Of a DNA stretch of 24,213 nucleotides, positions 1 through 3,000 are shown in pieces. The notes under the pieces are model-generated. The model did not search any database, had not been told where the DNA came from, and saw only the letters and a program-made list of their open reading frames with translations. The first letter of the stretch is position 1. Each line of letters opens with the position of its first letter. Source of the DNA: Candidatus Thorarchaeota archaeon. GTDB lineage: Archaea; Asgardarchaeota; Thorarchaeia; Thorarchaeales; Thorarchaeaceae. The DNA is taken from contig JBHLQM010000054.1 in NCBI GenBank assembly GCA_048884785.1, forward strand, positions 1,617-25,829. Reading direction: 5' to 3'. A program made the position numbers and the translations under genes.

Positions 1-3000
1 GAAGGCCTGCGAGAAGATGTCCTCCGAGATTTTGCCGATAATATTAACGAGTATTTTGCCAAGGGGGTTGTTCCTGAAGAATATACAGGCGAACATGTAC
101 CCGACCCAATAGAAGACCCCGCCCTAACAAAATCATGGGTTATCGAAGAGAAGCAATATAATGACAAGGGCGATGAGCTTCAACCTATGATGCGGTTGGG
201 CACTCCGGCTCAAACTGAGGATTATATTGGACTAAGAGAGATGTCTCCGACTAGTGGAGTTGGAGGTCCAATGGGATGGCTGATTGATACTGTTTTGTAC
301 AGTCTAATTGACCTTGGATTTCAAGACCTAGCCATACATGTGGATGCTGCAGAGGACTTGAACGATTATATTCAAGGTATTGTTGAAGATTCAAGAGATG
401 AAATCCAGACTTGGTTTAACAACCAGGGTCTCAACGTGACCAACCATGATTTCTCGACGTGGATGCCAGAGCTCCTGCCACGACAGATGTTCGAACTCTG
501 GTCAATGATCGACCAGTTGATTCTAGATGCCTGGTATGAAGTGGACGAGTACATCGGCGAGTTCTTTGACTGGATTATTAATACACCAGTTCAGGAAAAG
601 CTGACTGGTCTTGTGCCTGTATTCCTGTTCCGGCTTGGCACTCCTCTGAATCTAGGATCGGATTTCGCAAGTTTTGGCGCCGTTCTTCGTATAAAACTGC
701 TGCCAGATTTTGAGATTGACAAGACCCCATTTGAGTCCTTCATGAACCAGGCAGTGCTTGGAGGAGTTGATATGGATTCCTTCGGCGATGCCGAGGCCCA
801 GTTCACAGAGATTCGGAAATTCATAGATGTGATCCCAGTGATGGAGATCGACCTTGGTATCTGTGCTTTCCTGCCTACTGGCAATGACTGGGTACAGGGT
901 CTCATGGGTCAGTTCACCATTGACTTCTTTGGCCACGCTTGGCTGAAGCTGGCATTCCCACCTGTGGACGCATCAAACACCGACCGTTCATTCATAGATG
1001 TCCGTGAGTGGGGACTTCGCTTCGAGCTTGATGCTTCATTCTCACTGAGCATATCTGCATTCCTCTCCCCAGGGCCTGGAGGAGTCATCAGTACCATTCT
1101 GGAGTGGTTTTCAGAACTCCTCTCGATCTCTATTACACTTACATTATCAATAATATTCGAGATTAGCAAGAAGTATCAGGGACAGGGACTTCCCTCGCTC
1201 TCGACTCTCTTGTTCGATATCATCATTGGTGTGACTCTGAGCATCAGAATTCTCATCTGTGTATTTCAGGGCACCTTCAAGGTGGGACTCAGGTTCGAAC
1301 AACGGTCAGGCATACTCTCCGGGTCTCCGTTGATGGCGCTGGCAGAGGACCCCGACCCGGTCATCATACATACCCTAAGTGACATCTCTACCTCGACAAT
1401 AGGTATCTACATAACTCTCTATTGCTCGCTCTACTTTGGTATTGACCTGTTCTTCACATCCTTTGGCACGCATTTTGGAGGTCCGTGGACAACAACGATT
1501 GATCTGTCCGCATCGTGGGGCGATGGAGACTATGGCACCGAAGCGGCAGACCTCACTGATACAGACGCTGATGGTCTTCCAGATGACTTCGAGATCAGAA
1601 TGTCACTCCTCTATGGCACTCTCCCAGAGTTCCAGCTCGCTGACTCCTCGACATTCCTTGACCCTAATAATGATGATACAGATAACGATGGGCTTGGAGA
1701 CAAACTTGAGATAGAACTCAACACCCTTCCGTGGAAGACAGACACTGATGATGACCTCCTTACAGACTATGAGGAACATGTCACCTACAAGACCAATCCG
1801 CTCCTGAACGATACGGATCGGGACAATCTCACTGACTATCAGGAAGTCAAGATCTACGACACGTCGCCGTTCTTGGTCGATACCGACGGAGACATGTTGT
1901 ACGACTGGTATGAGATCAACACCGAATACGATGTTTCCCTGACCAAGGGGACCTATGGCGCTGTCGAGTCTGTCAAGATTGGCGGAGTCTATTATGATGA
2001 CAGGACTGATCCACTTAATCCCGATACAGATAATGATGGGCTACTAGATGGGGAGGAATGGGACAATGGCGTTGAGTATATGAACGAGTCCGAGGTCGCT
2101 ATGTACCTGTACGTCAATTTCAGGTGGACTCATCCGCTTGATGCAGATACAGACGATGACTGCGTTGGCTGGCTCTGGCAAGGTCCATGGAGTGACCCAT
2201 TCTATGTTACTGACTCATACCTATGGGACTTGCATGATGGAACAGAGGTCAAGGGGCAGATAGCCACTATCCCTGACCTTGAGGGTTATCCCGAGGTCAA
2301 ACTCGTAAAGACCAATCCATGCAATCCTGATACAGATAATGACACAGCGTGGGGTGCTGTGATGCTTTACAGGACAGATGGCTATGAACTAGCATCTGAC
2401 CCACAATACGACCCCACAAATGGCGACGAGGACAGTGACGGCTTGAAGGATGGCTATGAGGCAATTGGTCCAGGCGGGTCTGGCACAGATGCAAAGAATC
2501 CTGACACTGACAATGATCACCTGCCGGACTACGAGGACTGGAAACTACCTACTGACCCCAGGAACCCGGACTGCGATGAGGACATGGTTCTCGATGGCGA
2601 TGAGTACTTCCTGTACGGAACGAATCCCCTCAACAATGATACAGACCTCGACGGGCTCACAGATGGCGAAGAGCTGTTCTTCTTCTACTGTAACCCGCTT
2701 GTTCGAGACTCGGACCTTGATGGACTTACGGACGGCGAGGAGATACTGCGCTATCTGACTGATCCACTGGTTGCGGATACTGACCACGATATGTTGTCTG
2801 ATGGATACGAGGTCTTCTATTCAAAGACAAATCCACGACTGTTCGATACTGATAATGACAGACTTGGTGATGGAGAGGAGCTTCTCGTATTCAATACCAA
2901 TCCGCTTGACTGGGACACAGATCATGACTCTCTCGACTATCCGAATGAGAACGGCACGATGACCCTGCCTCTCAGCGATGGTGATGAGGTCCTCGACCAT

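Follow-up and report, generated by a model that had tools for sequence, protein, structure and literature searches.

An undescribed amphipathic beta domain with very long strands in stalked surface proteins of Asgard archaea, and its possible contact with lipid

The walls of outer-membrane barrels (BtuB/FhuA/HasR, CymA, autotransporter beta-domains) are antiparallel meanders in which the strands are long and tilted and one of the two faces is apolar. RBG lipid bridges (VPS13, ATG2, AsmA, TamB, YhdP) consist of many tandem units forming an amphipathic sheet, with a continuous hydrophobic face and with helix-containing connectors between strand groups. Helix-backed lipid carriers (TULIP/BPI/SMP, LolA/LppX, MTP/vitellogenin) combine a long curved antiparallel sheet, amphipathic helices and a large apolar surface. 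Bacterial TSP3 surface proteins (Myxococcus CglD and MtsD) have stalks of DxDxDG TSP3 repeats and act in a context of cell-surface adhesion. The Asgard domain described here resembles the first group in these features, the second in its amphipathic sheet, hydrophobic face and connectors, the third in principle and the last by the stalk on which it is carried. As for the host side, cultured Asgard cells, including a cultured Lokiarchaeon, have one membrane and no S-layer; their surface bears a forest of unidentified proteins, which are believed to establish the contacts between cells that figure in models of eukaryogenesis (PMC9834061).

The window, i.e., the whole stretch of 24,213 nucleotides analysed here from a Candidatus Thorarchaeota contig, opens inside gene 1 (Table 1). 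This gene encodes a type-I anchored surface protein with the order signal peptide, helical region, beta domain, TSP3 array and C-terminal TM helix. Its true start and its signal peptide lie 345 nt upstream of the window, with a gap of 100 N in between; the full ORF covers contig positions 1272-5750 and encodes 1492 aa, gap included. About 30 full-length homologues (1450-1630 aa) were found, all from Thorarchaeota and all annotated as «hypothetical protein». Orthologues are 43-90% identical, which argues for a real, conserved domain, and the TM helix and the K-rich ending are also present in the relatives. The stalk contains 24 matches to the DxDxDG motif and scores above the Pfam threshold (TSP3_bac at 26.8 bits for a cut-off of 25), a result that applies to the stalk and not to the beta domain; the stalks of relatives reach 45-220 bits. 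TSP3_bac is the only Pfam match of the full gene 1 protein. The placement of the beta domain in the ectodomain, proposed in the initial annotation, is confirmed: it lies beyond the TSP3 array as seen from the C-terminal TM anchor.

Table 1. Features of gene 1 and its downstream neighbours (nucleotide positions in the window; residues numbered in window frame 1).
Feature	Position	Strand	Basis or remark
Gene 1	1..4134		+	5' end truncated by window; ORF list and translation
Amphipathic helical region preceding the beta domain	253..585	+	Helices at residues 89-106, 114-141, 160-194; AF2 pLDDT 80-89
Long-strand amphipathic beta domain	583..1515 (residues 195-505, ~300 aa)	+	A2 profile, AF2 models, face analysis
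Eight long strands	670..1443: 670-717, 823-870, 913-954, 997-1050, 1129-1176, 1201-1251, 1258-1311, 1390-1443 (residues 224-239, 275-290, 305-318, 333-350, 377-392, 401-417, 420-437, 464-481)	+	DSSP of AF2 models
TSP3-like stalk, ~24 DxDxDG calcium-binding repeats	1558..3864	+	Motif count; Pfam TSP3_bac
C-terminal TM helix (3922-3993) and Lys-rich cytoplasmic tail	3922..4131	+	Hydropathy window 2.0-2.4, K-rich end
Gene 2, FG-GAP/NHL multi-propeller giant, secreted, unanchored	4131..10001	+	Pfam; signal peptide, without TM anchor
Gene 3, fn3-containing, signal peptide and C-terminal TM anchor	10015..11841	+	Pfam fn3, termini, synteny

Nucleotides 583-1515 encode an undescribed, conserved domain of ~300 aa. 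All its occurrences are in Asgard archaea, in 71 of 301 genomes and in 10 families; about 95 copies of it are listed, and the distant-clade gene is present in several closed genomes. The A2 profile matches it end to end (E 1e-76 to 1e-123) and detects it exactly once in each of 14 full-length relatives; neither a second copy in its own genome nor an internal repeat was found. The domain has no match in Pfam, NCBIfam or the PDB sequences, the latter being also searched with profile A2 up to E <=10. ESM Atlas, queried with the N-region and with the domain, returned no usable or named match, and literature searches on Asgard FG-GAP proteins, integrins, thrombospondin type 3 repeats and cell envelope brought up no account of the family.

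Distant homologues match gene 1 in the region of the beta domain only. The Asgard giants with a «head-beta-TSP3-TM» order (~2100-2250 aa) contain true homologues of the domain, with 23-30% identity, the same position before the TSP3 repeats and an FG-GAP giant as downstream partner, as for gene 1. They differ by a head of ~900 aa (~300 aa in gene 1), by a second sheet face that is fully polar and by the absence of the loop 438-463. The domain is always located between an amphipathic helical region and the TSP3 array, directly before the array. The distant clade likewise has a helical region ahead of the domain, and hhalign detects no homology between it and that of the close clade (probability 2.4%). 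The beta domain is the only globular module common to the two clades, the heads of which differ.

The downstream genes are also conserved. Genes 1 and 2 share an ATGA in which the start of the second overlaps the stop of the first, and the adjacency of these two genes is kept at five further loci (L003, L004, L006, L009 and L010); in the distant clade, an FG-GAP giant lies downstream in 3/3 of the beta-domain genes examined. Gene 3 is, by synteny, the third member of the conserved cassette.

The initial annotation had read about ten segments with alternating hydrophobic residues as strands rather than TM helices. The segments it quoted are all in frame 1 of the plus strand, at window residues 205-503. 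Their reading as strands is supported by a conserved period of 2 and by the AF2 models; the count comes to 8-9 long strands (14-20 residues each) and 2 short ones, for the ten or so first proposed. The domain contains 62 windows of eleven residues with a beta-moment >1.8, compared with 12.2 ± 7.2 when its residues are shuffled (2000 shuffles), and its mean beta-moment is reached by 0/2000 of these shuffles. By beta-amphipathy the 300-aa stretch ranks second among the 1380 ORFs of the genome with at least 300 aa, after a bactofilin-like beta-helix that is unrelated to it, and no other high scorer has a positive GRAVY (+0.53 for this stretch). The same composition is found in the whole family, since 30/30 members have a GRAVY of +0.47 to +0.79 and an ILVFM content of 38-44%. 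One face of the sheet consists wholly of Ile, Leu, Val and Phe, and the opposite face of Ser, Thr, Gly and charged residues. Face conservation and AF2 agree with a single sheet having one uniformly hydrophobic face, and the alternation is kept column by column in relatives of both clades that are just 23-25% identical.

In the AF2 models the domain is an open, curved up-and-down meander of very long strands; to the eight strands of Table 1 the domain-only model adds one at 208-217 and two short terminal ones. The two models have a mean pLDDT of 60 and 70 and a pTM of 0.49 and 0.58, with pLDDT 70-88 in the strands. Four short amphipathic helices are modelled in the strand connections (residues 241-254, 264-272, 296-301 and 362-369), and both spots previously named as helical are modelled as helices. 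Neither a closed sandwich nor TM helices, the two outcomes that would have spoken against the initial annotation, are predicted, but a two-layer core covered by helices is compatible with the models. With moderate confidence, the sheet would be an open arc comparable in shape to a part (~8 strands) of the 22-strand wall of a TonB-dependent receptor, and not a closed barrel.

Every match in four structure searches (VIA, top 50 each) is the wall of a membrane barrel. The eight strands superpose on BtuB 150-347 (Z 11.9, 2.8 Å over 153 aa), CymA gives the same Z of 11.9 and FhuA and HasR fit at ~3.6 Å; it must be kept in mind that a Z of 10-12 is modestly above the background of 7-8 given by fold-less models and that any long-stranded meander matches barrel walls. 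For these moderate-confidence models, the best fits are partial walls of 22-strand barrels (2.8-3.7 Å), whereas whole barrels of 10-14 strands fit at 7-9 Å. Foldseek against the PDB gave nothing at E <=1e-3 for either model, with TM-scores <=0.38. In several structural alignments, the helices preceding the domain are aligned with wall strands adjacent to the matched ones in the target, a hint that the wall would be a single layer and not a sheet covered by helices. Contrary to outer-membrane barrels, to which it has no sequence relation, the Asgard domain is modelled as an open arc, is internal and not C-terminal, and is much more hydrophobic (GRAVY +0.5); no Omp85 was found in its archaeal host, which, judging from imaged Asgards, has no outer membrane (PMC9834061).

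The initial annotation had also compared the strand pattern with RBG bridges, TULIP domains and beta-pore formers. Kinship with the RBG family (VPS13/AsmA/TamB) is not borne out: the domain is present once per protein, is devoid of internal repeats and has no family match, as an hmmscan search at E <=10 with each of the 30 domain sequences gives no Chorein_N, AsmA or TamB. It is a single domain of ~300 aa, in contrast to the many tandem units of RBG proteins, and its strands are longer. TULIP and pore-former folds find no support either. Pfam gives no match of the domain sequences to TULIP or to beta-pore-forming toxin families, and RBG, TULIP, LolA and pore-former folds are missing among the fold-search matches listed, an absence which does not prove that the folds differ. 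Perforin-2, MAC, gasdermin and CDC-like pores are matched at TM 0.05-0.09 only, and MTP appears as one weak Foldseek match (E 0.096). Compared with the helix-backed carriers, the Asgard helices are in the strand connections instead of forming one wrapped helix, and there is no profile match. As regards CglD and MtsD, the NCBIfam similarity is sub-threshold (NF033765 matches the stalk with E 5e-37, below the cut-off of the model) and is confined to the repeats; the N-terminal 540 aa, with the beta domain, are matched by neither NCBIfam model, and the mode of anchoring differs.

We tentatively propose, at somewhat below an even chance, that the domain is a lipid-contacting amphipathic beta wall, i.e., a new domain outside the RBG, TULIP and outer-membrane-protein families that would not form a transmembrane pore. 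The functional element would be a hydrophobic surface of ~40 x 55 Å, most likely facing a non-aqueous partner: the sheet and the amphipathic helices may enclose a groove that holds lipid, or the sheet may lie on a membrane surface, that of its own cell or of a neighbour. The location of the domain at the cell surface, given by the signal peptide and the C-terminal anchor, counts for this proposal. Against it, the greasy face is rich in Phe, Ile and Leu and has no Trp/Tyr girdles typical of membrane strands, no lipid-transfer fold came out of the fold searches, and the ILVFM content of residues 85-500 (38%) is compatible with an ordinary two-layer core. Such a buried core is a serious possibility, if also short of even. 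The greasy face would then pack on the domain's own four helices and on the three long ones that precede it, without lipid, and the resulting two-layer alpha/beta, helix-filled half-barrel would be a neck between the calcium stalk and the variable head. Every helix in and before the domain is indeed amphipathic, and together they amount to ~130 helical residues, which could cover most of the sheet; the longest (35 residues, ~52 Å) is close to the strand length of ~56 Å. Moreover, the second face in the distant clade is polar (S/T/G/K/E/R/D), as for a solvent-exposed face, all members have the domain placed in line with the head before it and the stalk after it, and amphipathic sheets of secreted proteins are mostly plain cores. 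However, strands of 16-18 residues and a GRAVY of +0.5 to +0.8 are unusual in soluble two-layer domains, the greasy face is strictly conserved while the preceding helical regions have no detectable homology between clades, and no two-layer alpha/beta protein is among the structural neighbours listed.

It is rather unlikely that the greasy face is instead a protein-protein interface, either holding the unanchored FG-GAP giant at the cell surface or joining several stalk proteins, for instance with three arcs closing into a ~24-strand barrel. The domain is the sole module shared by both clades, both of which then have an FG-GAP multi-propeller gene; gene 2 has a signal peptide and no anchor when genes 1 and 3 are anchored, and the predicted arc is about one third of a 22-strand barrel. 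Synteny alone is nevertheless weak evidence of contact. A two-copy complex prediction of the domain, run without controls, gave an ipSAE of 0.00, which speaks neither for nor against this reading. A true transmembrane beta-barrel or beta-pore, placed in an archaeal outer membrane or in the membrane of a target cell as are OmpA-TSP3 proteins or beta-pore toxins, has a still lower probability and must be regarded as very doubtful. The structural neighbours are exclusively transmembrane barrels, bacterial TSP3 repeats often connect an OmpA-type barrel to an anchor domain, and, at barrel tilt, 8-9 alternate residues would form a greasy belt spanning ~40 Å. On the other hand, the AF2 sheet is open and closed barrels of 8-14 strands fit at 7-9 Å with Foldseek TM <=0.38, the domain greatly exceeds outer-membrane proteins in hydrophobicity and has no aromatic girdles, and an odd number of strands would force a large head across the membrane. 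The Omp85 insertase (PF01103) was not found in the host genome, which is 91% complete, in a search whose control detected it in 7 diderm bacteria. This lack of Omp85, the open model and the single membrane of cultured Asgard cells (PMC9834061) make a classical outer-membrane barrel unlikely. Last, the segments could be transmembrane alpha-helices of a polytopic domain, as one 19-residue window (residues 403-421) has a Kyte-Doolittle value of 2.4 and relatives have 1-3 such windows. A hydropathy census, meant to show whether GRAVY values of this size are confined to polytopic membrane proteins, gives no information, since its crude 19-residue filter scores the domain's own strands as TM-like. 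Both AF2 models predict strands, the period-2 signal is far above that of shuffles, and a polar or charged residue is found at every second position across clades. This conserved polarity leads to reject the helical reading, which is extremely improbable.

Should the conserved greasy sheet touch lipid, archaea would have a first lipid-facing beta wall belonging neither to the bacterial outer-membrane families nor to the eukaryotic RBG family. An extended form of the lipid-contact proposal, improbable as a whole, is that this new wall, on its calcium-stiffened stalk, lies on or wedges into another membrane or carries lipid, the FG-GAP giant being the recognition part. The target would be the membrane of a syntrophic partner, of a vesicle or of the cell's own protrusions, and single-membrane cells without S-layer would gain a protein device for direct membrane-to-membrane contact. 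If the sheet is only a core, it is still an unannotated and easily recognised Asgard marker domain worth a family entry. The anchored giants recognised by this domain form a family that extends over the phylum; each is paired with an integrin-like FG-GAP giant, and this family is a concrete candidate for part of the Asgard surface protein forest.

Minus-strand ORFs are also present within the region (591-905, 652-936 and 909-1169); the plus frame is the one conserved as protein, with 43-90% identity across genomes.

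The reading frame of gene 1, which encodes a TSP3 surface protein, is open from window base 1 to 4134 (frame 1, + strand). Its start lies upstream of the window, at position 1272 of its own locus (L002), where a typical signal peptide is encoded. The N-terminal part of the product is incomplete here since a 100-N run (L002 1517-1616, directly upstream of window base 1) interrupts the gene: the 1492-aa product, as assembled, contains 34 X where homologues have about 115 aa. The N run may reflect a gap in the assembly or bases that were withheld. The TSP3 array separates the beta domain from the membrane anchor in a signal-peptide protein, and the beta domain thus belongs to the ectodomain. 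It must be added that the NCBIfam models closest to this array (window 1621-4131) are CglD (a Myxococcus gliding-motility adhesin) and MtsD (a cell-cohesion protein); the CglD match (E 5e-37) is far below the model's cut-off, and the likeness looks driven by the repeats only.

Features of gene 1, gene 2 and the distant-clade gene pairs (residues in window frame 1)
Feature	Position	Strand	Remark
Signal peptide	N-terminus of gene 1 product	+	from start at L002 1272
N-terminal part	after signal peptide	+	~190 residues in homologues
Amphipathic helical region	residues 89-194	+	before beta domain
Flagged hydrophobic region (beta domain)	residues 195-505 (nt 583-1515)	+	
Near-invariant motifs	P-x-G-x-G 215-219; E-W-G 336-338; F-x-Q 432-434		at strand ends; few such
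Hydrophobic second-face positions	V228, L234, I278, V280, F310, I385, L404, I408, L418 (nt 682-1254)	+	close clade
~24 DxDxDG TSP3-type repeats	residues 520-1288	+	Pfam TSP3_bac
Single C-terminal TM helix	residues 1308-1331	+	
Lys-rich tail	C-terminal end of gene 1 product, after TM helix	+	
Gene 2	window 4131-10001	+	1956-aa FG-GAP/NHL multi-propeller protein; signal peptide, no anchor
Distant pair, locus L041	head-beta-TSP3-TM 9490-16107; FG-GAP giant 9-9488	-	
Distant pair, locus L042	head-beta-TSP3-TM 6548-12868; FG-GAP giant 12871-19998	+	
Distant pair, locus L043	head-beta-TSP3-TM 6412-12960; FG-GAP giant 3-6557	-	

The initial annotation had read the flagged stretch as amphipathic strands interleaved with helices, and this reading is borne out. 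All the quoted segments are found in the translated stretch, and 62 eleven-residue windows exceed the threshold for beta-strand alternation (12.2 ± 7.2 in 2000 shuffles); the observed mean period-2 moment was reached by none of the shuffles. A first AF2 model (28-sequence alignment; mean pLDDT 60, pTM 0.49) has eight strands, 14-18 residues long, that coincide exactly with these segments, and helices at the two helical spots. A second, of the domain only (30-sequence alignment of both clades; mean pLDDT 69.7, pTM 0.58), contains nine long and two short strands, with a strand pLDDT of 70-88. TM helices are ruled out by polar residues at alternate positions, conserved across clades.

Genome-wide, the stretch ranks second among 1380 long ORFs for the period-2 hydrophobic signal and is the only high scorer with a positive GRAVY (+0.53). 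The first rank is held by an unrelated 420-aa ORF (contig C59, minus strand) with (V/I)GGS-type repeats, like a bactofilin-like beta-helix cytoskeletal protein. Unusually hydrophobic 290-aa windows also occur in two giant ORFs, on contigs C79 (+, ~2266 aa; Gly-rich hydrophobic helix-like segments) and C10 (-, ~2618 aa; Ig-like repeats in appearance), neither of which matches the beta domain.

A word-indexed search gave about 30 orthologues of gene 1, of equal size, with 43-90% identity over the N-region; those named are nearly all Thorarchaeota «hypothetical protein» (with gene 1, the close clade). An exhaustive phmmer search of 1.84 billion representatives matched only 15 proteins. The distant ones (the distant clade; named entries from Thorarchaeota and Hodarchaeales) show 23-30% identity over residues ~200-445 only, within the central part of proteins as long as ~2300 aa, and TSP3_bac repeats follow the match in 7 of the 9 scanned, the two exceptions being truncated records. 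The profile of the domain alignment gives a single end-to-end match in each of 14 full-length relatives (E 1e-76 to 1e-123), always directly before the TSP3 array. The domain is present in one copy in its own genome and is carried by 71 of 301 genomes (10 of 30 families) of a phylum sample, mostly in ORFs of ~2100-2250 aa; a profile search of longer proteins likewise yielded Asgard entries only. No match was found in Pfam, NCBIfam or PDB sequences, and no usable or named one in the ESM Atlas. This single portable module is therefore a real, unannotated domain that the databases lack and that has been seen in Asgard archaea alone.

Column by column, in every strand and over its full length, both clades have I/L/V/F at the alternate positions that form the first sheet face. 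In the distant clade the second face is built of Ser/Thr/Gly together with Lys/Arg/Glu/Asp, whereas nine of its positions, polar there, are hydrophobic in the close clade, gene 1 included; a clade-specific element may pack on it. All 30 members keep a GRAVY of +0.47 to +0.79 and 38-44% ILVFM in spite of a between-clade identity of only ~24%, thus hydrophobicity itself is under selection. The strand connections contain four amphipathic helices, each with a broad apolar face. A helical region precedes the domain in every clade, without detectable homology between clades.

The stop of gene 1 overlaps the start of gene 2 (ATGA), and gene 3 (fn3, anchored) follows 13 nt after gene 2. This three-gene cassette is still found where gene 1 is only 55% identical. 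A GGAGG site precedes genes 2 and 3, and the C-terminus of the gene 2 product reads ...RRFCAC, without TM anchor. The neighbourhoods of three distant-clade genes were examined (one from Thorarchaeota, the others from two closed genomes). In these other Asgard families each head-beta-TSP3-TM protein (~2100-2200 aa) is directly followed by an abutting or overlapping gene that encodes a giant FG-GAP multi-propeller protein (in L041, of 3159 aa). Pairing of the two genes appears to be phylum-wide; being found in both clades, it defines the conserved unit, in which an FG-GAP giant without anchor accompanies an anchored head-beta-TSP3 protein.

The Foldseek comparison proposed by the initial annotation gave nothing significant for either model; its weak matches are outer-membrane proteins (TM-scores at most 0.38). 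With VIA-align (48,161 PDB representatives, plus a second look at Foldseek's own lists), the best 50 for each model comprise transmembrane barrel proteins only: CymA (Z 11.9, 209 aa, 7.3 Å), FauA (Z 10.6, 200 aa, 4.2 Å), BtuB (Z 11.9, 153 aa, 2.8 Å; model 207-483 on BtuB 150-347), FhuA and HasR (~3.6 Å). These Z of 10-12 exceed a stated background of 7-8, but a likeness to barrel walls is to be expected of any long meander. The fit to small closed barrels (autotransporter beta-domains, OmpG) is no better than 6.5-9 Å; we read the predicted fold as an open arc that corresponds to about eight strands from the wall of a wide barrel, rather than as a closed barrel. The suggested kinship with repeating beta-groove (RBG) lipid-transfer proteins does not hold (single copy, no repeat, no family match), and those with TULIP and pore-forming folds are unsupported: no RBG, TULIP, LolA or pore-toxin structure is among the matches listed. 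A classical outer-membrane protein is ruled against by (i) the open model; (ii) the internal position of the domain; (iii) its composition, much greasier than that of outer-membrane proteins; (iv) the absence of Omp85 from this genome (91% complete), a control search finding it in seven diderm bacteria; and also since the Lokiarchaeon in culture has only one membrane and lacks an S-layer, its surface proteins being unordered (PMC9834061).

Conserved and present in single copy, the beta domain is exposed at the cell surface, and one face of its sheet is continuously apolar over ~40 x 55 Å (computed from strand number and length). We infer that this face must be shielded by lipid or membrane, by the flanking amphipathic helices or by another protein. 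Lipid or membrane contact is plausible, and the reading tentatively favoured is that the greasy face would contact a non-aqueous partner, either lipid held in a groove that sheet and helices form or a membrane on whose surface the sheet lies. Four points speak for it: the extreme hydrophobicity has been conserved, whereas no conservation is detectable in the preceding helices; ordinary two-layer domains have far shorter strands; the sole structural analogues face lipid; and several alignments put the long helices next to the sheet, not over it. The main rival, an ordinary core covered by helices, is a genuine possibility: most of the sheet could be hidden beneath the amphipathic helices, which comprise ~130 residues, and the 38% ILVFM of residues 85-500 would suit a two-layer fold. 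A face used for docking or oligomerisation, which would account for the strict association with an FG-GAP giant, is rather doubtful; a true transmembrane barrel or pore is unlikely.

Elsewhere in the window, two ORFs overlap on opposite strands (13711-14442, +, 243 aa, without Pfam match; 13761-14417, -, 218 aa), and the GC skew changes sign near 13711-14442.
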